A stretch of 64,000 nt of DNA from an uncultured delta proteobacterium (GCA_963810965.1 CAWEPT010000012.1:4314-68313); one strand, 5' to 3'; positions 17,147 to 35,196 are shown, numbered from the stretch's first letter. Numbers and translations: made by a program. The notes: generated from the sequence alone by a model not told the origin.

Positions 17147-17180
17147 AAAGGGGCCGGCAGCGATGCCGGCCCCTTTTTTT
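17147..17180 (+). terminator. Intrinsic terminator after hppA
   Basis: GGGGCCGGCA-GCGA-TGCCGGCCCC followed by T7. Confidence 0.85.
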
Positions 17181-17393
17181 ATGCTTCGCACCGGCTGCAT
17201 CGCAGCAGTGACCATGTCACCCGGTGACCGGTGGAAGAGCAACCTGCTCCTATCCTCAAGCCTGAGCCGGAACCTGAAGCCTGCGCGACGCTTCATAGAA
17301 ATAACCCTTGACAGCCCGGGACAAACTCAATACTTTCAGGAGACCCCAACCTGCCGACCCTGGCAGCCACACCGACCCTTCAGGGCATTTTTC

Positions 17394-18488
17394 ATGGGCT
17401 TCAACTGCGGCGTTATCGGCCTTCCCAACGTCGGGAAATCGACCATCTTCAACGCGCTGACCTGCGCCGGGGCCGAGGTAGCCAACTACCCCTTCTGCAC
17501 CATCGACCCCAACGCGGGAATCGTCCACGTGCCCGACGAGCGGCTCGAGAAAATCGCGTCGGTCATCAAGCCCCCCAAGGTCACCTACACGACCATGGAA
17601 TTCATCGACATCGCCGGTCTTGTGAGGGGGGCCAGCAAGGGCGAGGGCCTCGGCAACCAGTTCCTCGGCCACATCCGTGAGGTGGACGCCATCGTCCACA
17701 TCGTCCGCTGCTTCGACAACCCCGACATTGCACACATCTACGGCCCCATCGACCCTGCCCGGGACATCGAGATCATCAACATGGAGCTCATCCTGGCGGA
17801 CCTCGACACACTCGAAAAGCGCATCGCCAAGACGGACAAAATCGCCAAGGCCGGTGACAAGGATGCCCGGAAGGCCATGGCAGTCTACCCGCGGTTCACG
17901 GATGCCCTCAAGCGGGGAATCCCGGCGAGAAATGTGCCCGTGCAGGATAACGAGCAGGAGATCCTCGATGAAGCCCACCTGCTGACGTCCAAGAAGGTCC
18001 TCTACGTGGCCAACGTGAGCGAGAAAGTCCTCAAGGAGGATGGACCCTACATCGCGAAGGTTCGCGAGATGGCCGCGAAAGAGGGCTCCGGTGTCGTGGT
18101 GATCTGCGGCGACCTGGAGATGGAGATCGCAAAGCTCGACCGCGTGGAGCGAAAGGAATTTCTGGAAGACCTCGGGCTGAAGGAATCGGGGCTTCAGCAG
18201 CTCATCCGCGAGGGGTGTGCGCTTCTCGATCTCATCACCTTCTACACCACCGTGGGCCCGGAGCTCAGGGCCTGGACGATCCGCAAGGGAACGAAGGCAC
18301 CCCAGGCCGCAGGAAAGATCCACACCGACATGGAGCGGGGATTCATCCGGGCCGAGGTGCTGCACTACGGAGACTTCATCCGTTCGGGGGGTATTGCGCC
18401 GGCAAAGGAGAAAGGGCTCCTGCACTTTCAGGGAAAAGACTACGAGATCGTCGATGGCGACATCGTCTATTTCCGGTTCAATGTGTGA
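17394..18488 (+). CDS. ychF: Redox-regulated ATPase YchF
   Basis: [40 protein letters not shown]-terminal TGS domain. Confidence 0.96.
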
Positions 18489-19085: not shown

Positions 19086-19971
19086 ATGATGAACCGAATC
19101 ATGCGTAGTCTCTTTGCCTTCTTCCTTTTATTGTCTTTCTGGCGGCTGCGGGTCGAAAGAGGTTCCCCCGCCGCAGATGAAACCGCCGGCCAAGGTCGCC
19201 CTTGTTCTGGGGGCAGGAGCCTCGCGGGGATTCACGCATATCGGTGCTCTCAAAATCCTGGAGGCAAACCGGGTCCCGATCCACCTGATCGTCGGAACCA
19301 GCGCAGGAAGCTTTGTCGGGAGCCTGTCTGCGTACGGCTTCACAGCCTTCCAGATCCAGAGCCTCTCCTTTTCCATTGAGAAGGGAGATATCGTAGACCT
19401 GACCGTTCCGGACAACGGGTTCATCAAGGGCGAGAAACTGGAATCCTACGTCAACCACCTGGTGAACAACACCCCGATCGAAAAGATGCGAACCCCGCTC
19501 TACGTGGTGGCCACGGACATCCAGTCGGGAGAGGAAGTCGTGTTCGCCTCGGGCAACACGGGTACGGCGGTTCGGGCGAGTTGTTCCATCCCGGGGATTT
19601 TCCAGCCTGTGAAGATCGGTGCAAAAACTTACGTCGACGGGGGCCTCGTGAGCCCCGTGGCCGTCGACTATGCCAGGAAGATGGGTGCCGACCTCGTCAT
19701 CGCCGTGGACATCTCCACGGGGGCCAACAACGCGCCGCCCCAGACGACGATGGAAACGATCATGCAGTCCGTCGTCATCATGTATTCCAAGATCTCCCAG
19801 AACCAGCTTAGTCGTGCCGATGTCGTCATCCGGCCGAAGGTGAGCCACATCGGCTCGACGGACTTCTCCAAGCGTCACGAGGCCGTTTTGGAGGGGGAGA
19901 AGGCGGCGATGGAAGCGATGCCGGCGATCAAGGCGGCGCTGGACAGGCTGAGGGCAGAAGGAAGGCTCTGA
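19086..19971 (+). CDS. Patatin-like phospholipase lipoprotein (indel in the signal peptide)
   Basis: LGAGASRG, GTSAG nucleophile, DGG motif. Confidence 0.88.
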
Positions 19972-20038
19972 AAGCAGTGATGAAGTGCCTAAGTGCGGAA
20001 GTGTCTGAGTGAAGATAGAGAGAAGCTGAATTTGAGGC

Positions 20039-20303
20039 AAAAAAAATTGGTGGATGACGGACGGCTCATCCACCAATTCTATGTTAAAAGAGAGGTTGTT
20101 CCCCAACCCCCTCCCTTTTCTAACAGGGGGTCGGCGGATGGAAAGGAGGGAACCAAAAACCATCCGCCGATTCGCAAACCTAAAGCACGATCATTGATGC
20201 TGGGTGTCTATTTTATGAGACCTTTAGAGAGGATCTACCCTTCCTATTGGATAAATTCTTTATCTCTCTTATGTTAAAGGTTCCGTCGTCTAAAGGTCTC
20301 GAC
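20039..20303 (-). ncRNA. Candidate sigma54-dependent sRNA 1 with anti-SD loop
   Basis: Sigma54 promoter upstream; 12-bp 5' stem (20217-20228/20289-20300); 11-bp stem with loop UUUUUGGUUCCCUCCUUU; a third hairpin; 13-bp terminator with U-tract; no credible ORF. Confidence 0.7.
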
Positions 20304-20313
20304 ATTACCATAG

Positions 20314-20330
20314 AGCAATAACGATGCCAA
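20314..20330 (-). promoter_or_regulatory. Sigma54 (-24/-12) promoter
   Basis: Minus strand TTGGCATCGTTATTGCT. Confidence 0.8.
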
Positions 20331-20392
20331 TAAATATAAGTTAATGATTGCAGATAGTTATGAATTTATCGGCTGATCTTTCGCCGGCAAGA

Positions 20393-20497
20393 TGTGCGAC
20401 TATCGCACAAATTGAAGGCGGCCTGCCGTGACACGTCCTGAAAATCGATGCTTCGCCGAACGTGCCATATTCGCACAACATGTGCGAATATGGCACT
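20393..20497. promoter_or_regulatory. Three 17-bp dyads (candidate bEBP enhancer sites)
   Basis: TGTGCGACTATCGCACA (20393), CGTGCCATATTCGCACA (20461), TGTGCGAATATGGCACT (20481). Confidence 0.65.
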
Positions 20498-20503
20498 ACT
20501 CTT

Positions 20504-22681
20504 CTAAGTGCCCGTATCCCCGCCTTTTCCAACCTTTTTCAATTCACGAATCAGTGCGTACCGGGAGATATTGAGCAGGGCCGCAGCTTTCGTCTTGTTG
20601 CCTCCGCTCAACTCCAGTGCCCGCTCAAGAATCCGTTCTTTGATCTTGTTCGTGAGTTTTTCGACGGCAAGCTTGTAATCGATCCTGTCCGTTGCCGATG
20701 TGAGAGGGAGCAGATCATCGGCGGGAGCGACGGGATCCCGGGCGGCCGACACTTTTATTTCCGCAGGGATGTTCTCCGGCGTGATGAGACGGCCCACATC
20801 GCGAAGGATCATGATCCGCTCGATGATGTTTTTCAGTTCGCGGACATTCCCGGGCCAGGTGTACCGGCGGAGGATTTCCTCGGCTTCCTTGGCAAACCCT
20901 TTGACCTTCTTGTTGAACTTCCGGTTGAACTCCTCCACGTAGTTGCGTGCCAGCAGCAGGAGATCATCGCCGCGTTCGCGAAGCGGCGGCAGGATGATCG
21001 GCACGACACTGATGCGGTAGAAGAGGTCCTCGCGGAACGAACCTTCCGCCACCATCTTCGAAAGATCCCGGTTCGTCGCAAAGATGAACCGCACGTCGAC
21101 AGGGATGGACTCGTTTCCCCCGAGGCGCCGGATGTATCCGTCCTCGAGCATCCGGAGAAACTTCGCCTGCAGCGGAAGGCTCATGTCGCCGATCTCGTCG
21201 AGAAAGAGGGTCCCCCCGCTGGCATACTCGAGAAGACCGAGCTTGCGCTTCCGGGCATCGGTGAAGGCCCCCGCCTCGTAGCCGAAGAGTTCGCTTTCCA
21301 GGAGGGTCCCCGGGATGGCCGCGCAATTCACGTCGACAAAGCGTTTCTGGCTCCGGTGACTCTGACGGTGAATGGCGCGGGAAACGAGCTCTTTTCCGGT
21401 GCCACTCTCCCCCTGGATGAGGGTATTGGTGTCGTGCTTGGCCACCTCTTCGATGACGTGGAAGATGCCGACCATCTTCTTTGACTTGCCCAGGATGTTG
21501 TGAAACCCGAGAAGGATGTCTTCCCGCTCCTTGAGCTTCTCCACCTCCGTCTTGAGCGACTTCGCCTCGATGGAGAGGATGGAGTGCATGATGGCGCTGT
21601 CATAGGACGTGGCGGCATTATTGACGAGAATGTCGAGAACGTTGATCTGGTCCTGCGAGTAGATGCCCGTCCGCATCCCCAGCAGAAGAACCCCCTTGAA
21701 GCGGTCTTTCACTTTCAGGGGAATCGCCACCTCCGAGGGATAACCTTCGTAGAGGGGTTCGACGGCATCAGGCACCTCATCGGTCTCCTCATCGGTCTCC
21801 TCATCGGGCTTCTGCACCGTGATGGCGTCGCTGTCGAGGGCCCTGCGGATAATCGTCCGGTCGATCCGGAGACCATACTCGTTCTTGTCGTCGATGAACC
21901 CCCGCTCCCCGTCATTGATGAAGACGCGGTTCTTCTCGATGTCGAGGAAATAGATGAGGGCCTTTTCGGCCTTTCCGATCCGAAGGGCGCTCCGGATCAG
22001 GATCTCGTGGATCCGCTCGATCGAGTACGTGGAATTCAGGTCGGAAACGGCCTCCTGAAGGATGAGCAGCTGCTCGATCTTCTCCCGGTTGATCTCGAAG
22101 AGGCGCGTAATGTGGATGATGATGCTCACCTGGTTGGCAAAGGTGAGCAGGATGTCGATCTCGTCGGGAGAAAACCTGGTTTTTTCCTTGGTCCAGACGG
22201 CGATGATGCCGATGACGTCGTCTTCGATTTTCAGGGGCGCATAGAAGGTGGAGCCGCGTTTGTAGAAGGCGGAGATCTTTCGATCCGTCTCCGTCGTGCG
22301 GGGGTCCTTCTCCGAGTCCTCGAGGGCGATGTAATGGCCCGTCTTGGCCACCCGGGTCTCGAAACTGTCATGCTTCTTCAGGCTCAGGTGAACCGAGAAG
22401 GCCCTCTCGGCCTCCTCGTCGCTGTAATTCTTCACGACCCGCGTGATCAGGTTCTCCCGGCTTTCATCGACAAGGAGGATGATCCCCCGGTCGAACCCCA
22501 TGGAGTCGACGACTTCATCGAGGATCTTGCCGAGGATGTCCGCAACGCTGGAGGGGGCCGTCAGGAAGGTGCTGATCTGGAAGATTCCCTTGATCAGCTT
22601 GTCCTTGTCGATGCTGAAGGCCGAGGATGTCCTGACGGGAGGGGGGGGTATCGTTCCACCCTGTTCTATGATTCGCGCCAT
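20504..22681 (-). CDS. Sigma54-dependent enhancer-binding protein (GAF-GAF-AAA+-Fis HTH)
   Basis: GESGTGKE, ESELFG, GAFTDA, FLDEIG, WPGNVREL, GNKTKAAALL; two N-terminal GAF-like segments. Confidence 0.92.
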   Translation of the reverse strand: MARIIEQGGTIPPPPVRTSSAFSIDKDKLIKGIFQISTFLTAPSSVADILGKILDEVVDSMGFDRGIILLVDESRENLITRVVKNYSDEEAERAFSVHLSLKKHDSFETRVAKTGHYIALEDSEKDPRTTETDRKISAFYKRGSTFYAPLKIEDDVIGIIAVWTKEKTRFSPDEIDILLTFANQVSIIIHITRLFEINREKIEQLLILQEAVSDLNSTYSIERIHEILIRSALRIGKAEKALIYFLDIEKNRVFINDGERGFIDDKNEYGLRIDRTIIRRALDSDAITVQKPDEETDEETDEVPDAVEPLYEGYPSEVAIPLKVKDRFKGVLLLGMRTGIYSQDQINVLDILVNNAATSYDSAIMHSILSIEAKSLKTEVEKLKEREDILLGFHNILGKSKKMVGIFHVIEEVAKHDTNTLIQGESGTGKELVSRAIHRQSHRSQKRFVDVNCAAIPGTLLESELFGYEAGAFTDARKRKLGLLEYASGGTLFLDEIGDMSLPLQAKFLRMLEDGYIRRLGGNESIPVDVRFIFATNRDLSKMVAEGSFREDLFYRISVVPIILPPLRERGDDLLLLARNYVEEFNRKFNKKVKGFAKEAEEILRRYTWPGNVRELKNIIERIMILRDVGRLITPENIPAEIKVSAARDPVAPADDLLPLTSATDRIDYKLAVEKLTNKIKERILERALELSGGNKTKAAALLNISRYALIRELKKVGKGGDTGT

Positions 22682-22800
22682 GAATCCATCCCTTATTGGG
22701 TCCAGGGTAAAGGGTTAAGGGTACAGGGGACACGGGGAACCCGCTCATAATTCCCGTACATCCGATGGGCCATCTCCGCCAGGGACGGGAAATAACGCGG

Positions 22801-22853
22801 TTTATAGCAGGATGTTTCGCCTTTTTCAACCTATTCCGTGCGAAACTTGCACA
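22801..22853 (-). promoter_or_regulatory. Sigma70 promoter of the bEBP gene with an adjacent 17-bp dyad
   Basis: Minus strand TTGAAA-N17-TATAAA with extended -10 TG; dyad CGTGCGAAACTTGCACA at 22837-22853. Confidence 0.6.
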
Positions 22854-23063
22854 CAGGAAAAGCAGGGTATCGGGTCTAGGGTACTGGGTAAGAAAAAAAG
22901 AGGGGTCAAGAGAGCTTGATGAGCACTGGTTGAGTTCTGCAGGCTCGGGGATCGGGTCTCGGGTTTCAGGTGAAAGAAAAGCCCCTGAGCCGAAACGGCC
23001 GGGGCTTTGCTGATTTGATGCCTTTTCTTCCCTGTACCCTGTACCCTAGACCCTGTACCCGTA

Positions 23064-25094
23064 TTACGCCGTGTCGTAGCGGAGGAACTGCATGGTGAAA
23101 ATCGCCCTCCCCTGGGTGGCGGAGCGCAGGTCCGTCGAATACCCGAAGAGCGACCGCAGAGGCACATGCGCCCGGATCTCGGTGACGGGCCCCTTGGGCG
23201 CAACGGAATCCACTTCCCCTTTCCGGGCATTGATGTCGCCGATGACCTCGCCCATGAAGTCCCTGGGGGTGAGGATGTCGATCCGCATGATCGGCTCCAG
23301 GAGAACCGGGTCGGCCTTGGCGCAGCCATCCTTGAAGGCCGTTGCCGCAGCGATCTTGTAGCCCACGGGTGAGGCTTCCCCTTCCTTGAAGGACCCCCCG
23401 GCAATGCGTATTCTCACGTCCAGCACGGGATAACCCGCCAGGACACCGCTGAAAACGGCCTCCCCGAGAGACTCCTCGATGACGGGATGGAATTCCGCTG
23501 GAATGGTCTCGGGCGGAAGCTCGTTTTTGATCTCGATCCCGGCGCCCCTCGGCAGGGGCTCCAGGACGAGCTTCACGTGGCCGAAGTGCTTCTTCTCGCC
23601 CAGCTCGCGTTCGAAGCGCCCGTCGATCTCGACCGATTTCTGAATCGTCTCGCGGTAAACGACACGCGGTTTTCCCACGTTGACGTGGATGTTGTACTCG
23701 CGCAGGAGCCTGTCCACGACGATCTCGAGATGAAGCTCACCCATCCCCGAAATGATCGTCTGGGCCGTCTCCTCGTCATACTTCACCTTGAGGGTGGGGT
23801 CTTCCTCGGAGATCTTGGCAAGCGCCTCGGGCAGCTTGTCCTGATCGGCAGGGGTCTTCGCCTCGATGGCCTGGCCGATGACGGGGTTATAGAACTCGAT
23901 GGACTCCAGGATGATGGGCTTCGACTCCTGACAGAGCGTGTCCCCGGTGGTGCTGTCCTTGAGCCCCGCGATGGCGATGATGTCCCCCGCGCCGGCCACG
24001 TCGATGCGCTCGCGCTTATTGGCGTGCATCTTCAGCAGCCGGGCCACCTTTTCCTTTCTCCCTTTCGTGGCGTTGAAGACCTCGTCGCCTGCTTTCAGGA
24101 GCCCCGAGTAGATGCGGGCGTAGGTGATCTTGCGGCCCTCGATCATGGACACCTTGAAGGCCAGCGCCGAGAAGGGCTCCCTGTCGTTTGCCGCTCGACT
24201 CTCCTCGGTCTTGGTGACGGGGTTCAGCCCCTTCACGGGCGGGACGTCCTCCGGCGACGGGAGGAAATCGATGACGGCATCCAGGATGGGCTGAACCCCC
24301 TTGTTTCGCAGCGCCGCCCCGCACAGGACGGGCACGAGCTTGAGCGACACGGTGGCCTTGCGGATGGCCCGGATCAACTCGGCATCCGGGATGGGGATCT
24401 CGCCCAGGTACTTGTCGGCGATTTCGTCGTCGACCTCGGCAAGCGTCTCCAGCAGTTTTTCCCGCCTGGCCTGCGCCTCGTCACGGAAGTCCCCCGGAAC
24501 CTCGGATACGTCGAAGGCCGCCCCCAGGGTGCCCTCCTGCCAGGTGATGAGCCGCATGCGGATCAGATCGACGATGCCCCTGAAATTCTCCGCCTCGCCG
24601 AGGGGAACCTGGACGGGCAGCGGCCTGGACGCAAACCTCTCCTGCATCATCCCGATGGCCCCGAAGTAGTCGGCGCCGATGCGGTCCATCTTGTTGATGA
24701 AGGCGATCTTGGGGACCCCGTATTTGTCGGCCTGGTGCCACACGGTCTCGGACTGGGGCTCGACTCCGTCCACGGCCGAAAAGACGACCACGGCCCCGTC
24801 GAGAACCCTGAGGCTGCGCTCCACCTCGATGGTGAAGTCCACGTGCCCCGGCGTGTCGATGATGTGGATCTCGTGGTTTTTCCAGTCGCAGGTGGTCACG
24901 GCGGAGGTGATCGTGATGCCGCGTTCCTGCTCCTGGGGCATCCAGTCCATGACGGCCTCGCCGTCGTGCACCTCGCCCATCTTGTAGGACTTGCCCGTGT
25001 AGAAAAGAATCCGCTCCGTCACGGTCGTCTTTCCCGCGTCGATGTGGGCGACAACGCCGATGTTACGGATTCTTGATAGCTTCACTCTTGCCAT
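23064..25094 (-). CDS. fusA: Elongation factor G (copy outside the str operon)
   Basis: [43 protein letters not shown]. Confidence 0.93.
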
Positions 25095-25181
25095 GGGCAA
25101 AACCAGTCCTGTCCGGCTGTAACCATCGTTTCGGCTTCTTCAGGGCGGCCATTCCCTCGCGACCCGTTGCGGAAGGTCCCC

Positions 25182-25799
25182 CTAACCGCCGGCTGCTGTC
25201 TGCTTCACGAGATCCTTGTTCGGGAAAATGGGTTCCCGGAGATCGACATGCCCCTTGATCGTCGTGACATCCTTGCCCCCGACCTGGAAGCGGACCTTTT
25301 TGATCTCCGTGAGATTCTGGGTGAGTGTGTTCGCCAGCGAGTAGACGGTGGCCACTTCGCTTGCCGTCCCGCCGGGGTGCTGCTCGATGAAGGGGTTGTC
25401 GAAATTCAGGGTTGCCGTGCCGTCGGCGATGCGGACCCCCTGCAGCTTTGCCCCTGCGGGGATCGTCCGGATCTGCCCCAGCTTGGGCCCTTCGATGAGG
25501 GCCTTCACGATCTCTTCGGCCTGGGCCGCCGTGTTCTTCCCCTTGGGGATGAGCCGCTTTTCCGCGACGAGGAACCGCTCGTTGGCATCGGAGAAGTAGA
25601 GCACCACTTCCTTCCTCTCCCGTTTTGCCGCCGCTTCTTCGGCGTCAGGCGGAAAGATGGTATCCGAGAGCGCCCAGAACATGAAGGCCAGGAACCCGCC
25701 GCCGATGAGGACGGCGCCGAGGATGAAGAACAGCCTGAAGGTCTTCTTTTTTTTCCGCGTCTTGAATTCGTCGGTTCGTCGCTGTCTCTTGCTCGCCAT
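25182..25799 (-). CDS. GerMN domain membrane-anchored protein
   Basis: N-terminal TM; LYFSD, LIEGP, YSLANTLT motifs. Confidence 0.82.
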   Translation of the reverse strand: MASKRQRRTDEFKTRKKKKTFRLFFILGAVLIGGGFLAFMFWALSDTIFPPDAEEAAAKRERKEVVLYFSDANERFLVAEKRLIPKGKNTAAQAEEIVKALIEGPKLGQIRTIPAGAKLQGVRIADGTATLNFDNPFIEQHPGGTASEVATVYSLANTLTQNLTEIKKVRFQVGGKDVTTIKGHVDLREPIFPNKDLVKQTAAGG

Positions 25800-25834
25800 A
25801 TCCGCTCAGTTCCGCCGGCCCGCTCTCATCGGGG

Positions 25835-26602
25835 CTACAGCTTTTTCAGATTCTCCCTGGATTTCACCGCCCAGTCCGATTCGGGGGCCAGCTGGATGAC
25901 CTTCTTGAACGACTCGGCGGCCTCCTTTCGCTTGCGCAGCTGCATCTGGGTCATCCCGAGCCAGTAATGCCCCTCGGCAAGATTGGACGCCAGTTGAACG
26001 GATCGGGTCAGATGCTTTTCCGCTTCCGGGTATGAACCCTCCTGGTAATCGATGACCCCCAGGTTCAGTTCCAGGACGGGCAACAGGTAGGTGTTCGGCT
26101 CCTTCCGGATGGCCTCGCTGAAGCTGGCATAGGCCCCCTTCAGGTCCCCCTTCGCCTTGTAGGCCCTGCCCATGTTGTAGAGGGGCAACGACGGGGTCTC
26201 GTAGAGGGGGTTGCCCAGCGCCCGGTTGAAGGACGCGATGGCCTCATCGTAGTTTCCCCGCGCCAGGTAAATCGTCCCCAGGAAGTTGTGCGCCTCGGAA
26301 TAGTCGGGCTTGAGGGCAATGGCCTTCTGGAACTCCTTGACGGCATCATCGATAAACCCCTTGCGCTCATAGGCGATCCCCATGTAGTAGTGCACCGTGG
26401 GGTCATTGGGGGTCAGCTTTTCGGCCTCGAGGAGCTCCTTCAGGGCCGGCGTGTACTGGCCTGCCTGGATGTGCGCCGCCCCGATGCGGATGTGCCCCAT
26501 GGCCTTATTCTTGAGTTCCGTATCGGAGACGCAGCCGGCAAAAACCATCGCCAGGAGCGCAAGCCCGGCGAGTCCCATCATCCATGAACGGGTATTTTTC
26601 AT
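25835..26602 (-). CDS. TPR lipoprotein, PilF/PilW-like
   Basis: Lipobox FAGC; tandem TPRs; NPLYETP. Confidence 0.8.
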   Translation of the reverse strand: MKNTRSWMMGLAGLALLAMVFAGCVSDTELKNKAMGHIRIGAAHIQAGQYTPALKELLEAEKLTPNDPTVHYYMGIAYERKGFIDDAVKEFQKAIALKPDYSEAHNFLGTIYLARGNYDEAIASFNRALGNPLYETPSLPLYNMGRAYKAKGDLKGAYASFSEAIRKEPNTYLLPVLELNLGVIDYQEGSYPEAEKHLTRSVQLASNLAEGHYWLGMTQMQLRKRKEAAESFKKVIQLAPESDWAVKSRENLKKL

Positions 26603-26616
26603 TTTTTCCCTTCTTC

Positions 26617-27192
26617 CTATTTCCGGTTGCCGTTGACCCACCAGTCACTCTTGTCTCGGAACCACCACTGTGTCCAGTCCGTTTGGAGGATCGTGTCGGC
26701 CAGCTTCTTCCCCTGATCCGTGCAGAGCCTGCGGACGGCGAAGTTCAGCCATTCCTGGCTGTACTGGTTGCCCAGATCCCCGTACTCCTTGAGCTGCAGG
26801 ATGAGGCCGAGCTGATCGGCATCGTGAGCCAGCAGGGCTTCCCTCGTCTTTTTCTCGTTGAACTCCTCGAGGACGGCCCGGATCTCGCCGCCGAAGGGCA
26901 GGTGTTCCGTCAGCTCCCGGACGGCCTTCTCCTCGTCGACGGTGACGTACTTCTTGTACATGTAATTCTGGTCGCCCGTCCTTGCCTCGGGAAGGTCGTG
27001 AACAAGGCACATCCGGAGCACCTTCAACTCGTCCGCGGCGGGATCGAGCTTGCAGAGCGAATAGCCGATGAAAAGGGTTCTCAGGATGTGTTCTGCGACG
27101 GACTCTTTGCCGGAACCGAGAAACCGAAACCCCGTGCGCGGGGTTTTGTTCAGCATGCCCACTTCGAATAGAAAGTTTGCGATTTCCTCCAT
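26617..27192 (-). CDS. HD-domain phosphohydrolase (YfbR-like)
   Basis: ESVAEH, HDLPEARTGD, DADQL. Confidence 0.85.
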   Translation of the reverse strand: MEEIANFLFEVGMLNKTPRTGFRFLGSGKESVAEHILRTLFIGYSLCKLDPAADELKVLRMCLVHDLPEARTGDQNYMYKKYVTVDEEKAVRELTEHLPFGGEIRAVLEEFNEKKTREALLAHDADQLGLILQLKEYGDLGNQYSQEWLNFAVRRLCTDQGKKLADTILQTDWTQWWFRDKSDWWVNGNRK

Positions 27193-27193
27193 C

Positions 27194-27403
27194 TCATCCC
27201 TTCTTCAAGGTACTGACCCGGTTTGCCATGTTCTCGGAGAGTTTCCGGATCTCGAGCTGCAGCGGGGCGATCCCCTCGGGCTTCATGGCATAGATCCGGT
27301 CCAGGCGTTCTTTCCAGTGCTCGATCACGGCGATCTCGTGCTCCCTGAGTTTGTGCTCGAACTTCTTCTGCACTTCCTTGACGAACTCGGCGTCTCTGGA
27401 CAT
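27194..27403 (-). CDS. Small helical hypothetical protein
   Basis: 69-aa ORF MSRDAEFVKEVQKK..., tightly coupled to the HD gene. Confidence 0.65.
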   Translation of the reverse strand: MSRDAEFVKEVQKKFEHKLREHEIAVIEHWKERLDRIYAMKPEGIAPLQLEIRKLSENMANRVSTLKKG

Positions 27404-27767
27404 GGAACCCCTTTTTCCGTCTCCGGGCGATAAAGACTGTGTATTATAACAACAACCCCCCATCTTGCAAGCGGGAATCTGGGAGCGGGAGGGGCCGGAC
27501 AAGCGCTTTCACGGACGGATGACCGCCGCAGCGGACCGAACGTGCTCGAAGGCCCTGCGCCGCGAAGCGCCCCACCGATCCTGCAGCTTCGGTTGCACCC
27601 GAGTGCGGCCGGGCGCCGCCCGGAGAGCGCGATTTGCAGAGAATACCCGGCTACAATTTCATTGACAAAGGGAGCGATTTTATGCCAGTGTCGCCACTTA
27701 GCGAACCGCCCCCGGCCCTTCCCCGGGCGGGTCATGGAGATTACCGGGACAGGAGATTACCCCCAAC

Positions 27768-28474
27768 GTGATTCCGGATCTGCTGGGACATGTCAGCTTC
27801 AGCTGGGAATTCGTCGCCGCCCTCCTGAGCATCGTCCTCATCGACCTCATCCTCGCCGGGGACAATGCCGTGATCATCGCCATGGCGGTGCGCTCGCTTC
27901 CCCGCAAGCAGCGCCAGAAGGGAATCCTGATCGGCGCCGGCGCCGCGGTCCTCCTGCGGGTCGTTCTCACCTTCTTCGCGGCCCAGCTCCTGCAGACCCC
28001 CTACCTGAAGTTCGTCGGGGGGCTCTTCATCCTCTGGATCGCCGTGAAGCTCTTCATCGAGGGCAGCGCCGGGAGAGGAGGTCCACCGGGAGGCCAAGGA
28101 CGATCTGGCAGGCCATGTGGGTCATCGTCGTCGCCGACATCACCATGTCCGTGGACAACGTGCTCGCCGTGGCGGGCGCCTCGAAGGGCAACCTCTTCCT
28201 GCTCATCTTCGGCCTCGGTCTGAGCATCCCCTTCGTCGTCTTCACGAGCAGCCTGCTGTCCATGCTGATGGACAAGTACCCTTACATCATCTATATTGGG
28301 GCTGCCGTCCTCGGCAAGGTCGGGGCGGAGATGATCATTACGGACCCCGTCATCGTGGATCATTTCAGCCCCTCGGTGGTTGTTCCAGTACGCGATGGAG
28401 GCCCTGGTCGCACGTCGGCGTCATCGTGCATCGGCAAGCTGTGGGTCCGCTGGAAGATATCGTCCAGGAAATGA
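27768..28474 (+). CDS. TerC/YjbE-family membrane protein (frameshifts)
   Basis: IDLILAGDNAVIIAMA; ADITMSVDNVLAVAG. Confidence 0.85.
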
Positions 28475-28538
28475 CCCGCGCATTGCGGGACCATCCGTAT
28501 AAATCACATCCACCCCAGAACGGCAGGGACTCACAACC

Positions 28539-29342
28539 ATGGCGATTCTGACCATATCCAGGGAATTCCGCAGCGGCGGACAGGAAATCGGGACCGCCGT
28601 CGCAGAGCGCCTGAGATACGATTACGTGGGCAAGGAACGGATCCTGTCCGATCTCAGGGGACAGGGCGATCGCTGGATCGCCCTGCTCAACGAGGTGGAC
28701 GAGGACCGTCCGACGATCTGGGACCGGTTTGACTGGGAATACCAGGGGCTCATGGCGCTCATGGATTCCTATATCTACGATCGCGCCATGGATGACCGCG
28801 TCGTCCTCGTGGGCCGCGGCTCGAATTTCCTCCTCGAGGGGATGCCCCACGCTTTGAGGGTCCGGCTCACGGCGCCCATCGAGCAGCGGGTCGACAGGGT
28901 CATGCGCAAGGACGGCGTGGACCGGAAAAACGCCGTGCGGCTCATCGAAAAAATGGACAACGACCGTGCCTCCTTCATCCGGGCGAACTTCCACCGAGAC
29001 TGGTACGACCTGACCGCCTACGACATGGTCTTCAACACGGCCGTCCAGACCTTTCAGGAGATCACCGACATCGTCTGCAACGCCCTGCAGGAAAAGGCGG
29101 GAAAACTCACCCTGGAAGCATGGGAGATGCTGCGCGGCAGGATGCTTGCTGCCCGGATCAAGGCCCACATCGCAACCAACTCCAAAATCAAGGTCCCGAC
29201 GCTCAAGGTGTTTTTCGACGGCAAATCCATCATCCTCCAGGGGGTCGTACGCCGGATGGCGGATCTGCAGGCGATCGGCGAGATCGTGACGGTCTCGGCC
29301 CAGGGGACGCCGGTGAGGAACGAACTGCGCTACGGGATATGA
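28539..29342 (+). CDS. Cytidylate kinase-like protein with a C-terminal BON-like domain
   Basis: ILTISREFRSGG, VLVGRG, YDMVFNT. Confidence 0.8.
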   Translation: MAILTISREFRSGGQEIGTAVAERLRYDYVGKERILSDLRGQGDRWIALLNEVDEDRPTIWDRFDWEYQGLMALMDSYIYDRAMDDRVVLVGRGSNFLLEGMPHALRVRLTAPIEQRVDRVMRKDGVDRKNAVRLIEKMDNDRASFIRANFHRDWYDLTAYDMVFNTAVQTFQEITDIVCNALQEKAGKLTLEAWEMLRGRMLAARIKAHIATNSKIKVPTLKVFFDGKSIILQGVVRRMADLQAIGEIVTVSAQGTPVRNELRYGI

Positions 29343-29388
29343 GGCTCGAGGAACCAGGGGCAAGGACACGAGGAAAAAAAAAGAGACG

Positions 29389-29420
29389 AAAAAAGGCGCC
29401 GAAGAATCGGCGCCTTTTTT
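29389..29420. terminator. Intrinsic terminator
   Basis: AAAAAAGGCGCCGA...TCGGCGCCTTTTTT. Confidence 0.85.
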
Positions 29421-29749
29421 ATCACCGGCCCTCGTCAGTCAGGCTTGTTTCCTGCCCAAAAATATCGGCCGAAAATATCTGGTAAAAAGCGCGCAAATTG
29501 GATATAGAAGCCAAGGGTTCGGCGATTGAACGCCGTTAGACAGGGTCATTCCACCATGCATCCGGAGATCTCCGGATGCCCAACCGTATCTGCCCGGGGT
29601 GTACAAGGAGGGGCTTGCATCCTTACCGGCAGCACCTCCTGACGCATATATTCCGTTATTGTTTCCTTATTACTCTTATTGCATACCGCCCTGCCCGGCT
29701 GCGGCCGGGGTGCAGGGCCTCACAGGATTTGTGGAAAGGAGGTTTTATC

Positions 29750-31109
29750 ATGCTCAGGCGGATTGCATCCGTTTTTCACGTATTTCATGAGGCACTACCT
29801 TCCCGATGCCTACCTCTTCGCCATCCTGCTGACGTTCCTCTCGGCGGTCCTCGCCCTGATCTTCACGCCGACGGACGTCATGAAGATGATCATGGCCTGG
29901 GGAAACGGCATCTACGGGATCGTGGCCTTCGCCATGCAGATGATCCTGATCCTCGTGACGGGCCACTGCCTGGCCCTCACCCCGGCGGTCAAGAGGGCGC
30001 TGGTCTGGATCGCCGGCAAGGGCGACACGCCCATCAAGGCCGGGATGATCGTCTCCTTCGTGGCGGGCGTGGGCTCCTGGCTCAACTGGGGCTTCGGCCT
30101 CATCGTCGGAGGCCTTTTGGCCCTCGAGGTGGCCAAGCGCACGAAGAAGGTGGATTACCCCTACCTCATCGCGGCGGCCTACAGCGGGTTCGTGGTCTGG
30201 CACCAGGGCTTGTCCGGCTCGATCCCCCTGGTCTGCGCCACCTCGAAGCACGCGCAGAACTTCATCGAGAAGATCACCGGGTCGCCGGTTCCCGTCGTCC
30301 GACACCATCTTTGCCATCCTACAACCTCATTGCGGCGCTGCTGATCATCTTCACACTTCCCGTCCTGTACGCGATGATCCATCCGAAGCCGGAAGAGGTC
30401 CAGGAGATCAGCGAGGCCAAGCTCAAGGAGATGGCCGACGAGACGATCCACGAGGAAAGGCCGGCCAACCCCACCCTGGCCGAGAGGATCGACCACAGCT
30501 ACGCGATCAACATCGTCTTCGGCCTCATGGGGCTTGCCTACCTGGTGAACCACTTCATGACCAAGGGCATGGACCTCAACCTCAACATCGTCATCTTCCT
30601 GTTCTTCATCGTCGGCGTCCTGCTCCACGGAAAGCCCGTCAACTACATCAAGGCCGTCAACACCGCCATCAGAGGGGGCCGGCGGCATCGCCCTGCAGTT
30701 CCCGCTCTACGGCGGCATCCAGGGGATCATGATCGGGACGGGGCTCGGGAAGGTCATCGCCACCTGGTTCGTGGCCATCTCGACGCCGGTGACGTTCTAC
30801 ATGCTCCAGTTCTGGGCGGGCGGGCTCATCAACATGTTCGTCCCCTCCGGCGGCGGTCAGTGGCTCGTCCAGGGCCCGATCACCATCGAGGCGGCCAAGA
30901 CCCTGGGGATCGACATGACCAGGTCCGCCATGATGGTGGCCTGGGGAGACCAGTGGACGAACATGATCCAGCCCTTCTGGGCGCTGCCGCTTCTCGGACT
31001 GGCGGGGCTCTCGGCCAGGGCCGTCATGGGCTACACGACGATGACCCTTCTGTGGAGCGGCGTGATCCTGTCGGTCATCGCCCTGCTCATGGGCTATGGG
31101 GTCATGTAA
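29750..31109 (+). CDS. atoE: Short-chain fatty acid transporter, AtoE family (several indels)
   Basis: LPDAYLFAILLT, FAMQMILILVTG, NWGFGL, QFPLYGGI, FVPSGGGQW, WGDQWTNMIQPFWALP. Confidence 0.88.
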
Positions 31110-31137
31110 TCTCAAGCTTCCATTCAGCGCATGGCAT

Positions 31138-31171
31138 AAAAAAGCCGGCTCCTTCGGGGGCCGGCTTTTTT
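31138..31171. terminator. Bidirectional intrinsic terminator
   Basis: AAAAAAGCCGGCTCC-TTCG-GGGGCCGGCTTTTTT. Confidence 0.85.
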
Positions 31172-31254
31172 AATCTTTCAGACGTTGCCTGTACAGAAGG
31201 ATCAATACGATCGATTCTCTGCTTTTCATGGTTTCAGGGATGCGCGGAAATGAA

Positions 31255-31404
31255 TCAGAGGGCCTTTGTCGCCCAGGAGGGCAAGACGGCCTTCGACGGT
31301 TTTGCGGAAGAGGCAGAGAGGTAGACCAACGCGAGGACGAGGATTGCCGGGTTGGCGAGGCAGCGCTTGATCCGTTTGTCCATGTATCCTTGCAGCGTTG
31401 ACAT
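31255..31404 (-). CDS. Possible 49-aa hydrophobic peptide downstream of sRNA 2
   Basis: MSTLQGYMDKRIKRCLANPAILVLALVYLSASS...; only a weak SD (AGGAAG). Confidence 0.25.
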   Translation of the reverse strand: MSTLQGYMDKRIKRCLANPAILVLALVYLSASSAKPSKAVLPSWATKAL

Positions 31405-31418
31405 GATCGAGCTTCCTG

Positions 31419-31547
31419 TTTGAAAAAGGTATCGGTGGATGGAAAGGAGGGACCAAAACCATCCACCGATCAACCTCTTTCAAATGAGCGCCGGGAAATA
31501 TTGGGGTCTGTCAGGGTCTTGGGTATTTCCCGGAACGTCTCAGTTGA
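31419..31547 (-). ncRNA. Candidate sigma54-dependent sRNA 2 with anti-SD loop
   Basis: Sigma54 promoter; 10-bp 5' stem (31491-31500/31524-31533); long hairpin with loop UUUUGGUCCCUCCUUU, homologous to sRNA 1. Confidence 0.68.
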
Positions 31548-31557
31548 AGTAAGATTG

Positions 31558-31573
31558 AGCAATAAGGATGCCA
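31558..31573 (-). promoter_or_regulatory. Sigma54 (-24/-12) promoter
   Basis: Minus strand TGGCATCCTTATTGCT, 15/16 identical to the promoter at 20314. Confidence 0.8.
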
Positions 31574-31776
31574 TGTCATGCCTCATTTCAGAAAAAAGTG
31601 AGCGTTCATTAATTAGTTAATAATATAATCAATTTCAGATACTTACAGAAATGCTGCCCTGCAGCAGCAAGGCAACTTCCTTGCCCCGGCCGGACGCGGC
31701 ACCTCACAAGACGTTCGATTAATGAACGATTAGTGTACATTTCTTGTCAACGCATTGCCGGAAGCCGCTCACAAGA

Positions 31777-31813
31777 TGTGCGACAAATGAACTGTGAGTG
31801 CTATTTACGCACA
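31777..31813. promoter_or_regulatory. Two 17-bp dyads 20 bp apart (candidate bEBP enhancer)
   Basis: TGTGCGACAAATGAACT and AGTGCTATTTACGCACA. Confidence 0.55.
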
Positions 31814-32220
31814 TTTCGTTCTGTCGGGCGATATTCGCCTGCCCTGGTGGCCGACCGGTCGCAGGTCGGGGCGCTGACCGAGAGGAGGAAATCCTCTGCG
31901 GGCCGGAAGCGCCCTGAGCATGCGGCATTGCGCCGCGGCATCGGATGCAGCGGCAGAAAACCCCGGCCTTTGCCCGAAAATACGTTTTTAACCTTGACAG
32001 AACGGCGGCATTTATGTATATCTCACGCGTTTTATTAAAGGCGCTTGGGACCTGAAAATCAGCCCGCAAGCACCCTTCCCCGCCGTTCTTTTGCCACGCC
32101 TGAGACAGAGAGAGGATCACCCCGGGCGAGTTGATTCATGAGACTCACGCTATGCGCTTGCACAGGAAAGTCCGTCATTCGCGCTTTGGGGCCAAATTTT
32201 AGAAAGGGAGGTAGTTGGTT

Positions 32221-33411
32221 ATGGCGTTGAATTTCAATTTCACCGATGAACAGAAGATGCTCGAGGACAGCGTTTACAAGTGGGCGCTTGCCTGGCTCGA
32301 GCCCCAGATGGAGCACGCGTACGAACTGGATGTGATGCCCGAAGGTCTCTTCAAGCAGACAGGCGACCTGGGTATCAACGGTATCGTGTTCGAGGAGAAG
32401 TACGGCGGAGCCGCCATGGGCTACATTGAAACCCTGCTGGCCTATGAGACGATCGCCCGCGTGAGCAACGCTCTCTCCATGACCGTCGGCGCCAGCCAGA
32501 CGCTGTGCTTCGACAACTTCCGCCGCAACGCGACGGAAAAGCAGAAACTGGAAATCCTTCCCAAGTCCTGCACCGGCGAGTACATCGGATGCCTCGGCAT
32601 CACCGAGCCCAACGCCGGCTCCGACGCCATGAGCATGGCGACGAAGGCCGTCAAGAAGGGCGACAAGTGGATCATCAACGGCAGCAAGATCTTCATCACC
32701 AACGGCCCCCTGGCCGACTTCATGGTGTTCTACGCCAAGACGGACCCCGAGAAGGGCCCCCACGGCATCTCCACCTTCATGTGCTACCCCAAGAAGCAGA
32801 AGGGCTGGTCCTGTGAGAAGATCAAGAAGTGGGGCATGAGAACCTCCCCCACGGGTCTCGTGACCTTCGAAGACATGGAGCTTCCCGAAGAGTACCTCAT
32901 CGGCGGCCTGAACAAGGGCGTGTCCGTTCTGACCTCCGGCCTCTGCACCGAGCGCATCACGCTGTCCGGCTGCACCCTCGGTTCGATGAGAAGCTGCCTC
33001 GAGCTCTCCCTGAAGTACTCCCAGGAGAGAGTCCAGTTCGGCAAGCCCATCGCCTCCTTCCAGTCGATCCAGGAGAAGCTCGCCAACATGTACTGCGGCT
33101 ACAAGGCCTCCCGCTGGATGGCTTACAGCGCCGCCGCCTACTGCGACACGCTGACGAACAAGTCCGGCGGCAAGGGCACGGACCTCGACCGTATGGCCGC
33201 GGCCTCCCTGCTGTACTGCGGCGAGATGGGCACGAAGATCGGTCTGGATGCCGTCCAGATCCACGGCGGTTACGGCTACTGCACCGAGTACGGTGTGACC
33301 CGTCACTTCCTGGATCAGAAGCTGTGGGAAATCGGCGCCGGCACCTCCGAAATCCGCCGGATGATCATCGCCCGCGAGCTGATGAGAGACAACTTCAAGA
33401 GCGGTCTGTAA
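32221..33411 (+). CDS. Acyl-CoA dehydrogenase (isovaleryl-CoA dehydrogenase-like)
   Basis: ITEPNAGSDA, NGSKIFITNG, RVQFGKPI, QIHGGYGY, EIGAGTSEI. Confidence 0.92.
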   Translation: MALNFNFTDEQKMLEDSVYKWALAWLEPQMEHAYELDVMPEGLFKQTGDLGINGIVFEEKYGGAAMGYIETLLAYETIARVSNALSMTVGASQTLCFDNFRRNATEKQKLEILPKSCTGEYIGCLGITEPNAGSDAMSMATKAVKKGDKWIINGSKIFITNGPLADFMVFYAKTDPEKGPHGISTFMCYPKKQKGWSCEKIKKWGMRTSPTGLVTFEDMELPEEYLIGGLNKGVSVLTSGLCTERITLSGCTLGSMRSCLELSLKYSQERVQFGKPIASFQSIQEKLANMYCGYKASRWMAYSAAAYCDTLTNKSGGKGTDLDRMAAASLLYCGEMGTKIGLDAVQIHGGYGYCTEYGVTRHFLDQKLWEIGAGTSEIRRMIIARELMRDNFKSGL

Positions 33412-33438
33412 TTCTCCAGCGCCCAGCGCAATCCACAG

Positions 33439-33474
33439 GAGCCGTGGCTCGTAAAGAGCCACGGCTCTTTTTTT
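33439..33474 (+). terminator. Intrinsic terminator
   Basis: GAGCCGTGGCTC-GTAAA-GAGCCACGGCTC followed by T7. Confidence 0.88.
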
Positions 33475-33551
33475 CCTCCCCGGTTTGACAATCATGCCTC
33501 CCTCAAGTAGTATACGGCACGCTTGAGCGCCGTCAGGGAGGATCCCGCACC

Positions 33552-35196
33552 ATGCAGTCACGGACGTTGAGGTTCGTTTTCGTCGCCCTGTTCCTGGCAG
33601 GGCTCGCCTCTTTTTGCCTGGCTGCAGCGGCACAGGCCCAGGAGGATACGGCTCACCTCGTTCTGCGAAAGAAGGGTACGGCAAAGGACAGCCCGTCCGT
33701 CTACATCGTGCAGAAGGGGGACAACCTCTCGACGATCATCCGCCGCAAGCTGGGAAAGCCGGCCTCCGAGTCCGCCTCGGTCTCCCGCCTCGTGAGGAAG
33801 CTCAACCCGCAGATCCGCAATGTCAACCGGATCTACCCGGGCCAGAAGATCGCCCTGCCCCGGCTTGCCTCCGAGCCCGGGAAAACGGGTTATGTCGTCA
33901 GGAAGGGCGACTCTCTTTCGGCCATCCTCCATGAAAGGCTGGGCGTCCCCGCGGCAGAGATGGCCAGATGGATCGGGCTCACGAAAAAGCTAAACCCGGG
34001 CCTCGCCGACCCAAACCGGATTTATCCCGGCCAGGCGCTGATCCTGCCGGACAGGGGCCAATCGGCTCCCGGGCCCGTCGAGCAGGCCGCCGGCCCGGCA
34101 CAGGCCGATGCGCCGCAGATGGACGCCCGGATGTTCCGGCCCACCGACCGTGACCTCGACATCATCGCGGCGCTCGTCAGGCAGTCCGGAGGGACGGTCG
34201 TCCGCGGCGGAAAGGTTTTCATCCCGCTCACCGAAGAGGAGCACCTGGCCGTCGACTGTGCCGACATCCCCATGGTGGAGCTTGCGGACGGCAGCCGGAT
34301 CTTCCTGGACTTCGGACGCCGGATTCCCGCCGATACGGCCGGCCTCGTGCGGTCGCGCTGGCCGAATTTCTCCGTCATCAGCGACGGCGGCAGTGAAGGC
34401 GTCTTTTCGGCGCTCGCCGGCATCTTCGGTGCCTCGCGGGACTACACCTTCCGCAGACACGAAGGGGCTCTGGATATCGGGGCCTCACCGGCGCTGAAAC
34501 TCCGGGTGGACTGGATCCTTTCCCGCAAGGGACCCGACGGGCAGGAAAACACCCTCTGCGGCGTCTGCAGAACATCCGGTCGATCCCAGCCGATCCCGGA
34601 GCCCGTCACCCGGTTCGCCGAGAAAAAAGGGGTTCCCGTCCTCGAGATCGACGAGGGAACCGGGGCCGTTCGCGTCAGGCAGGCGCTCACAGGCCGCCCC
34701 CGACATCCCCGCTCTTGATGCCGGCGGCAACCGGGCCTTTGTCGGTTCGCTGCTGGACACACTGGGGTACACGTACACGAAAGACCAGAGGATCCCTGTT
34801 TCCGACGCCGCGCAAGACGGCTCCCCGCTTGCAATCCGAACGGACTACTCCGTGAGAATCGGTGCCCGGACGGTTGTCATCCACTTCGGGGACCTGCCGG
34901 CGCCCTTCCAGGTCAAGCTGAATGAAAAAGGCATGGGCCTTGTGCAGATCGCCGGCGACGACGAACGAAGGGCGGTTCTGGAGAAGGTCCTCAAAGGGCT
35001 CGATATCCCCTACGTGCCGGAAACCGCCGAATTCAGGCCGCCCGAAGACGGCAGCCCGCCCCGATGGATCCTGACGCTTGACGTGATCCGGGTCACATCG
35101 GAAAAGGGCACGCTCTATCTCGTCCCCCCCGATGCGGACCGGGATCTCTGCGCATTCATCCGCGAGCGCTGGAACCGCCAGCTCGTCCGCTACTGA
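33552..35196 (+). CDS. Secreted protein with two LysM domains (frameshift near 34700)
   Basis: YIVQKGDNLS...NRIYPGQKI and YVVRKGDSLS...NRIYPGQAL. Confidence 0.8.

Follow-up and report, generated by a model that had tools for sequence, protein, structure and literature searches.

Two minus-strand loci in a 64,000-nt stretch of DNA from an uncultured delta proteobacterium (GCA_963810965.1 CAWEPT010000012.1:4314-68313; hereafter the window, with positions counted from its first letter) very probably both specify conserved structured RNAs transcribed from sigma-54 promoters under the control of a sigma-54 enhancer-binding protein (bEBP). By sequence comparison, the two predicted transcripts, RNA 1 at locus 1 and RNA 2 at locus 2, are paralogous members of an undescribed RNA family that extends across the order Syntrophales. 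In each, a hairpin exposes the loop CCCUCCUUU, which complements AAGGAGGG exactly; the latter is among the usual Shine-Dalgarno (SD) sequences of the source genome (a 1.5-Mb assembly, 68% complete). The initial annotation of this DNA had outlined a circuit in which the gene for a GAF-domain bEBP is followed by upstream activating sequences (UASs), a sigma-54 promoter and a structured RNA, with a paralogous locus carrying like sites, and our analysis recovered this layout.

Shared sites, promoters and hairpins at the two loci

The predicted activator, a 725-aa sigma-54 bEBP encoded on the minus strand at 20504-22681, combined tandem GAF, AAA+, AAA lid and Fis-type helix-turn-helix domains (Pfam GAF_2 in two stretches, Sigma54_activat with E = 1e-68, AAA_lid_14 and HTH_8). 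It scored under every NCBIfam equivalog cut-off, and comparison of its GAF region with PDB returned weak generic GAF matches only. The rpoN gene (PF04552 above cut-off) was present in all five genomes searched, G000 and four relatives. Directly after the bEBP stop codon, at the place claimed for locus 1 by the initial annotation, we found a palindrome with two arms of 15 nt, TGCCATATTCGCACA-TGT-TGTGCGAATATGGCA (20463-20495), which scored as two TGTGCG-N5-CGCACA-like sites, at 20461 and 20481, 20 bp apart; equivalent paired dyads occurred at the same place in other genomes. A third UAS, TGTGCGACTATCGCACA, lay at 20393-20409, and in the dyad scan of the 1.5-Mb genome no other site matched TGTGCGnnnnnCGCACA (TGTGCG-N5-CGCACA) perfectly. 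Between the UASs and the promoter lay a putative IHF-like, AT-rich stretch on the minus strand, TAACTATCTGCAAT (20347-20360), followed by the −24/−12 promoter TGGCATCGTTATTGCT (20314-20329, minus strand) with a start site expected at ~20303. This promoter was kept in 11/11 same-genus copies of locus 1.

Locus 2, which was located ~11 kb from locus 1 throughout the genus, showed all four of the elements said to be shared, in the same order and on the same strand. Its UAS pair, TGTGCGTAAATAGCACT and the weaker AGTTCATTTGTCGCACA, was likewise spaced by 20 bp (31777-31813), and the dyad half-sites were kept in 14 same-genus copies. The four dyads proposed at the outset were not equally sound: those at 20461, 20481 and 31797 (31797-31813, two mismatches) stood, and that at 31777 (31777-31793) proved degenerate, with one good half-site and no match at ≤2 mismatches. 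A third, degenerate site, GTTCATTAATCGAAC (31712-31729), carried the footprint GTKC-N6-TCGCAC that was kept in the genus. The 13-mer CAAGATGTGCGAC was present in exactly two copies in the window, at 20388 and 31772, where none was expected by chance, and an IHF-like AT-rich string was also present at 31632-31645. The locus-2 promoter, TGGCATCCTTATTGCT (31558-31573, minus strand; start site expected at ~31547), and its locus-1 counterpart were the sole two matches in the window, again with none expected; each had one mismatch to TGGCAC-N5-TTGCW and carried the −24 GG and −12 GC 10 nt apart, and TGTGCG-N5-CGCACA dyads lay 65-240 bp 5′ of each. In a genus-wide alignment of locus 2, the conserved footprints were the dyad half-sites, the promoter and two elements of the transcript described below, a C-rich loop and the hairpin.

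RNA 1 would be a transcript of ~265 nt (~20303 to 20039) made up of a 5′ domain, an anti-SD hairpin, a C-run and a terminator, all on the minus strand; its predicted fold had a free energy of −101.4 kcal/mol, with z = −6.35 relative to shuffled sequences. In this fold, the 5′ domain (20217-20300) was built on a long stem, GAGACCUUUAG...CUAAAGGUCUC, that enclosed a second one, ACCUUU/AAGGGU. The anti-SD hairpin, hereafter hairpin A (20131-20170; 71.7 bits against the covariance model), had an 11-bp stem, supported by covariation, and the loop UUUUUGGUUCCCUCCUUU, with CCCUCCUUU at 20150-20142. It was followed by a C-run, CCCCCU, paired to AGGGGG (20107-20130), as in most members of the family. 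The intrinsic terminator, GGUGGAUGA...UCAUCCACC and U8 (20039-20076), resembled a second hairpin of the family, hairpin B, at 25-27 bits against the covariance model with the anti-SD loop gone, and we take it from this resemblance to be a decayed hairpin B.

RNA 2 would be longer, ~410 nt (~31547 to 31138), and would consist of a hairpin with a C-rich loop, the anti-SD hairpin and then a 49-aa membrane-protein open reading frame (ORF). The first hairpin (31491-31533, minus strand) exposed a loop, ACCCAAGACCCUGACAGACCCC, that was nearly invariant in the genus alignment; GACCC-type repeats fill this loop. The anti-SD hairpin at this locus was extended (31419-31484, minus strand), so that its core (31469-31432; 62 bits), with CCCUCCUUU at 31451-31443, lay inside a longer stem (fold z = −4.70). 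As had been noticed at the outset, the hairpins at 20170-20131 and 31469-31432 differed by the swap of a C-G for a U-A pair and shared the CCCUCCUUU loop. The hairpin lay 15-25 nt 5′ of the SD of the 49-aa ORF (..KRCLANPAILVLALVYLS..; 31255-31404, minus strand, start at 31404), which showed synonymous changes across species and protein-level conservation (...KRCLSNPAILVLALVYLSS...) in the genus-wide alignment, with a single helix predicted. Public gene calls contained it in 39 protein clusters of 40-86 aa, mostly 40-49, named, where named at all, "hypothetical protein"; it had no Pfam or NCBIfam match. This ORF is probably on the same transcript as the hairpin, the likely end of which is a bidirectional terminator read from the sequence, AAAAAA-GCCGGC-CCCCGAAGGA-GCCGGC-UUUUUU (31138-31165), which the terminator scan had passed over because its loop exceeds 8 nt. 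The conserved ORF and the downstream terminator therefore indicate that locus 2 is a leader and small-ORF mRNA, perhaps one with a dual function. Thus, the description of both loci as non-coding applied to the shared elements and did not extend to locus 2 as a whole, where a conserved ORF lies 3′ of the hairpin.

The hairpin family, its sigma-54 promoters and its activator

Within the source genome, the hairpin was present in two copies, both by pattern and by covariance model. A DNA search of 41 relatives recovered the ~45-nt hairpin core in 29 with the locus-1 query and in 28 with the locus-2 query. A strict hairpin pattern matched 153/339 genomes of the order, representing 49/72 genera, as opposed to none with the reversed-pattern control; in family f15, it matched 0/116 genomes. 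When the phylum was sampled evenly, the same pattern was found in 6/14 same-order genomes compared to 0/387 genomes of other orders. A scan of species representatives returned at least 118 stretches, the titles of which were almost all Syntrophales, Syntrophaceae, Syntrophus or unclassified Deltaproteobacteria, with a Syntrophus buswellii chromosome and an S. aciditrophicus-labelled assembly among the matches listed as related loci. Individual RNAs carried one to three hairpins, with up to five per genome. The gathering-threshold Rfam scan of the window, which the initial annotation had called for, yielded one tRNA only, permissive Rfam 15 scans of both loci at E up to 10 gave chance eukaryotic matches only, and our literature searches found no description of the hairpin RNA and nothing on small RNAs (sRNAs) in Syntrophus aciditrophicus.

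Alignment of 135 distinct hairpins showed that 97.1% of the cells in the 11-bp stem were paired and that 4/11 stem pairs underwent compensatory change (for example, U-A in 101, C-G in 26 and U-G in 8 hairpins). The covariation score of 0.332 compared with 0.165 for shuffled alignments, none of which reached it in 500 trials, and with ≤0.156 for slid partners. The 65 G-U cells, summed over the stem, would be mismatches on the opposite strand and fit only the strand downstream of the promoter. Although the set was collected by patterns that fix the loop and allow only some stem letters, pairing was not forced by these patterns, and the unpaired combinations that they allowed were never seen at the two best covarying pairs.

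Sigma-54 promoters were counted at the 128 distinct RNA loci that were fetched, for 119 of which the upstream sequence extended over 520 nt. Of these 119 loci, 106 had a same-strand sigma-54-like site within that distance, as compared to 5/112 on the opposite strand and a background of 0.027 per 450 nt of genome, which bore out the expectation that homologous hairpins would carry such promoters. For the activator, tblastn identified bEBP orthologues of 59-75% identity over the full length, GAF region included, that end just 5′ of the RNA in distant families, and 40 of the 49 loci with at least 3 kb of flank had such an orthologue in this position. With the GAF region as a query (matches of ≥47% identity over ~270+ residues), an orthologue was detected in 30/41 relatives. 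Two genomes with an orthologue and no strict-pattern match, G025 and G037, contained dyads, a promoter and two variant-loop hairpins downstream (UUCCUCCUUU in G037). Conversely, five complete f15 genomes had no bEBP orthologue, though they encode 10-16 other activators each, and the covariance model found nothing convincing in G028, G033 and G035, which are complete and lack the orthologue. This pattern of presence and absence across the relatives, family f15, G025 and G037 therefore indicates that the bEBP gene and the RNA were gained and lost together. In G027, a complete genome of another family, only one bEBP orthologue accompanied three full copies of the RNA part of the module, each of which had its own dyads, promoter, 5′ domain, FFL ORF (see below) and two hairpins (two of the copies at G027:C1:1213157-1213320 and 1411064-1411227; L191 and L192). 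This is a design of one activator with several sibling RNAs.

Outside family f1, 300-490 nt of transcript separated the orthologous promoter from the first hairpin, and in most Syntrophales families this interval contained a conserved ORF of ~60-80 codons, here called FFL, preceded by the same 5′ domain as in RNA 1, which recurred in distant families. The FFL protein is hydrophilic, with a central (E/D)(Y/F)xFF(L/V/I)S and a C-terminal SxxFFL(P/S)(D/E) motif. An ORF filter retained 65 distinct ORFs (in L019, L040, L042-L048, L058 and many other loci; one example is L058:1442-1630, minus strand), most with the motifs and a few without, and the codons of the motifs showed synonymous and conservative changes. 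No FFL protein matched Pfam or NCBIfam, and none matched DUF1127. An SD core of 4 nt preceded only 2/46 FFL ORFs compared to 327/830 ORFs in a crude source-genome background. Past the ORF came first hairpin A and its C-run, then a middle hairpin (CUGAAAGG...CCUUUCAG), and last hairpin B, which shares the stem of hairpin A, has CCCUCCUUUU as its loop and doubles as a terminator. In contrast, RNA 1 of the source genus and its sister genus had no ORF and an almost unchanged hairpin A, and tblastn found no FFL homologue in the source genome, 68% complete as it is. Comparison of these arrangements suggests that in the ancestral locus-1 RNA a small ORF preceded the hairpins, one to three in number, and that FFL was lost in family f1. 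Because the RNA 1 orthologues and locus 2 both carry small ORFs, the term sRNA covers only part of the picture; of the multi-copy sRNA family envisaged earlier, the conserved structured family with a paralogue was upheld, and the designation as sRNA holds in part. FFL would represent a new small-protein family, and the hairpin a new family of Rfam grade.

Function of the anti-SD loop and competing explanations

In the mechanism that we favor, the bEBP would bind the dyads and convert a signal sensed by its GAF domains into sigma-54 transcription of the two RNAs. The covarying 11-bp stem would present the CCCUCCUUU loop, which would pair with the ribosome-binding sites of SD-led mRNAs independently of Hfq and lower their translation, with the C-run as a possible second seed. 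In the source genome, AAGGAGGG had 109 copies, ~45 of them just 5′ of an ORF start, and neither Hfq nor CsrA was found in any of five genomes, four of them complete. The lack of an SD at most FFL ORFs fits SD occlusion because FFL would thereby avoid self-repression. Taken as a whole, this reading of a bEBP/sigma-54-driven two-RNA circuit with loop-presented anti-SD repression is, in our judgment, evenly balanced between right and wrong, and for its central step, occlusion of SDs in trans by the hairpin loop, our confidence falls a little short of that balance.

Transcript data gave weak support to expression of both RNAs. Metatranscriptome contigs from four studies lay on RNA 1 (20039-20258, 20113-20279, 20036-20214 and 20036-20214), and one RNA-library contig (31191-31525) covered the locus-2 leader and ORF, consistent with the predicted ends; no RNA-library contig fell within 20334-20750, a gap that carries no weight as evidence. 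Several observations count against the proposed circuit. These contigs are strandless and come from runs selected for holding a stretch of the window, DNA carry-over is possible, and some of them extend past the match into dissimilar sequence or the convergent neighboring gene. The sigma-54-contacting loop of the bEBP AAA+ domain reads GAFTDA, where GAFTGA is canonical. The loop lacks apparent specificity, matching dozens of strong SDs with no target singled out. Its invariance is partly a matter of construction, since the collecting patterns fix the loop, and the CCUCC core is not absolutely kept, because the G025 loops are altered (CUCUCCUUU and CCCCCCUUUU). Throughout the order, 5/11 stem pairs do not vary, nor does much of the stem sequence, a constraint beyond the need to present a seed and one that would suit recognition by a protein. 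Finally, outside family f1 the hairpins always accompany small ORFs, as they also do at locus 2.

The same invariance of the loop and of 5/11 stem pairs, together with the multiplication of hairpins within RNAs and across loci, would suit a decoy or sponge RNA, in which repeated near-identical hairpins titrate or recruit an RNA-binding protein such as the co-encoded FFL protein or a factor recognizing CCUCCUUU, a sequence like the 3′ tail of 16S rRNA. A precedent is offered by the alphaproteobacterial cuckoo/CcsR sRNAs, which are reported to be bound by a co-transcribed small protein (PMC8034643). We nonetheless consider a sponge unlikely: the source genus keeps hairpin A at high identity without an FFL gene, Hfq and CsrA were found in none of the five genomes searched, and no candidate partner protein was identified. 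Similarly unlikely is an explanation in which FFL and the 49-aa protein are the effectors and the hairpins serve mainly in cis, in untranslated regions (UTRs), as stabilizers, terminators or translational switches. The terminator role of hairpin B, the location of the hairpins 3′ of the FFL ORF in most families, the position of the locus-2 hairpin just ahead of the SD of the 49-aa ORF and the single RNA-library contig spanning the locus-2 leader and ORF are what a cis element would predict, but hairpin A remained nearly unchanged in RNA 1 of the source and sister genera without any ORF, no U-tract follows it, and at the FFL ORFs the loop would meet no SD that it could mask.

Being a GC-rich inverted repeat in more than one copy, the hairpin might instead act purely at the DNA level, either as a REP-like or mobile repeat dispersed in the genome or as a DNA site bound by a protein. 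This is far less probable than either explanation above, given that only two copies exist in the source genome and two in a complete same-genus genome, that the hairpins keep one orientation downstream of the sigma-54 site, that the G-U pairs suit only one strand and that the synteny with the bEBP gene is fixed. A broader form of SD occlusion, in which a single GAF-sensor/sigma-54 switch would respond to an energy or metabolite signal with a global brake on SD-led translation in Hfq-less syntrophs, the cell being flooded with hairpins as mimics of the 16S anti-SD tail while the SD-less FFL, made from the same transcript, escapes, strikes us as improbable, short of the sponge and cis explanations and well above a DNA repeat. 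If it were true, the fixed position of the module by a convergent ychF gene and, in the window, downstream of the gene for EF-G would reflect a translation-control island.

Target prediction for the SD-occluding RNAs from the loop alone was uninformative, since many SDs match. Outside the window, at G000 C30:57006 (minus strand), we noted a 13-nt perfect complement to the loop and its closing stem, AUGGAAAGGAGGG, which coincides with the SD of a 3-codon upstream ORF ~20 nt 5′ of a membrane-protein gene; on the strength of this match, the gene may be considered a possible target lead. Feedback on the bEBP mRNA was considered and rejected: its leader SD is weak (AAGGGAUGG) and has no clear complementarity to the hairpin RNA. 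The dyad scan at ≤2 mismatches yielded 36 matches in the genome versus 25 in the reversed control, and a search by dyads for further regulon members produced no clear candidate, with only the sites at 22837, upstream of the bEBP gene, and C19:27561 similar besides those of the two loci.

Relation to known systems and genomic neighborhood

Pairs of a bEBP and a sigma-54-driven sRNA include LuxO-Qrr of Vibrio, GlrR-GlmY and CbrB-CrcZ. The present loci resemble them in having a dedicated bEBP beside its RNA target, sigma-54 promoters and paralogous RNAs with shared sites. However, the activator has tandem GAF domains where LuxO has a receiver domain, and the RNAs differ from Qrr in having no Rfam match, no Hfq in five genomes, an unrelated sequence and structure, and a seed placed in a hairpin loop and complementary to the SD. 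In Hfq-independent systems, sRNAs with C-rich loops such as RsaE/RoxS probably engage SD regions through unpaired C-rich motifs; the CCCUCCUUU loop and C-run are of this kind, whereas homology is lacking and the regulator belongs to another class. A sponge of the CsrB/RsmZ type, which binds CsrA through GGA loops, differs in that the Syntrophales loops are pyrimidine-rich and CsrA was found in none of the five genomes.

The closest likeness in layout is to the cuckoo/CcsR RNAs (alpha-r14) and their DUF1127 protein CcaF1 in Alphaproteobacteria, for which tandem hairpins with C/U-rich anti-SD loops, as here, have been described and SD occlusion by these loops proposed (PMC8034643). According to the same source, the small-protein ORF is co-transcribed, the hairpins occupy the 3′ UTR or the 5′ UTR depending on the lineage, and the loci are duplicated (PMC8034643); in Syntrophales the hairpins likewise lie 3′ of the FFL ORF or 5′ of the 49-aa ORF, and extra loci occur. 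The two systems differ in the loop, (U)CCCUCCUUU(U) as opposed to CCUCCUCCC in cuckoo RNAs, in the lack of any Rfam model match at E up to 10, in the absence of DUF1127 from FFL and the 49-aa ORF, in the regulator (sigma-54 with a dedicated bEBP here, RpoHI/HII there) and in the host phylum. Also within the former Deltaproteobacteria, a sigma-54-dependent sRNA downstream of the response regulator DVU0679 in Desulfovibrio and two RpoN-dependent sRNAs in D. alaskensis G20 have been described (PMC3333781, PMC4045070). The order of a bEBP gene and then a sigma-54-dependent RNA is the same as here (PMC3333781, PMC4045070); the activator there is a two-component response regulator, and the strict hairpin pattern matched none of the 387 genomes sampled outside Syntrophales.

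The Syntrophales design thus merges the Qrr-like principle of a dedicated bEBP with sibling RNAs and the cuckoo-like principle of a small ORF with anti-SD hairpins, and belongs to neither group. It would be a second, independent case of a small ORF with anti-SD hairpins beside the cuckoo RNAs, a parallel that points to convergence in the evolution of such loci. Syntrophales live at the thermodynamic limit, and to our knowledge, essentially nothing is known of their post-transcriptional regulation. The module is order-wide and clean, consists of few parts (a single sensor-activator with its sites, and between one and three RNA loci whose functional loop is sharply defined), is testable in cultured Syntrophus and would provide a handle on RNA-based tuning of translation in bacteria without Hfq or CsrA.

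As to the surroundings, a convergent ychF gene, encoding a ribosome-associated ATPase, was present at 47/103 loci, in most ending 9-400 nt past the last hairpin (RNA loci in L012, L020, L048, L178, L179 and others; 17163-18488 in the window). In the window, ychF and RNA 1 are separated by an inserted patatin-like gene, which is convergent with RNA 1; a minus-strand ORF at 19099-20163 was rejected as spurious because the GC content at third codon positions (GC3) did not show the expected pattern, the real gene there, also by Pfam, being the plus-strand patatin-like gene. On the same grounds, we rejected a minus-strand ORF at 32059-33684, where the real gene encodes a plus-strand acyl-CoA dehydrogenase, from which RNA 2 is divergent. 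A canonical EF-G gene lies upstream of the bEBP gene, and the region between them (22682-23063, minus strand) contains runs of GGGTACA-like heptads and, farther on, their complement (TACCCT/GACCC repeats), with which they could form long-range pairs. The gene at 27768-28223 (plus strand) partially matched YjbE/TerC-family "riboswitch-associated" membrane proteins, and Rfam at gathering threshold detected no riboswitch near it in the window. Finally, the gene for a short-chain fatty acid transporter (SCFA_trans; 29679-31109, plus strand) is broken into three frames (29679-30344, ~30317-30680 and 30729-31109), and RNA-library contigs of relatives differ from it by 1-nt indels at 30296, 30314 and 30672, suggesting either a pseudogene or indels introduced during assembly.

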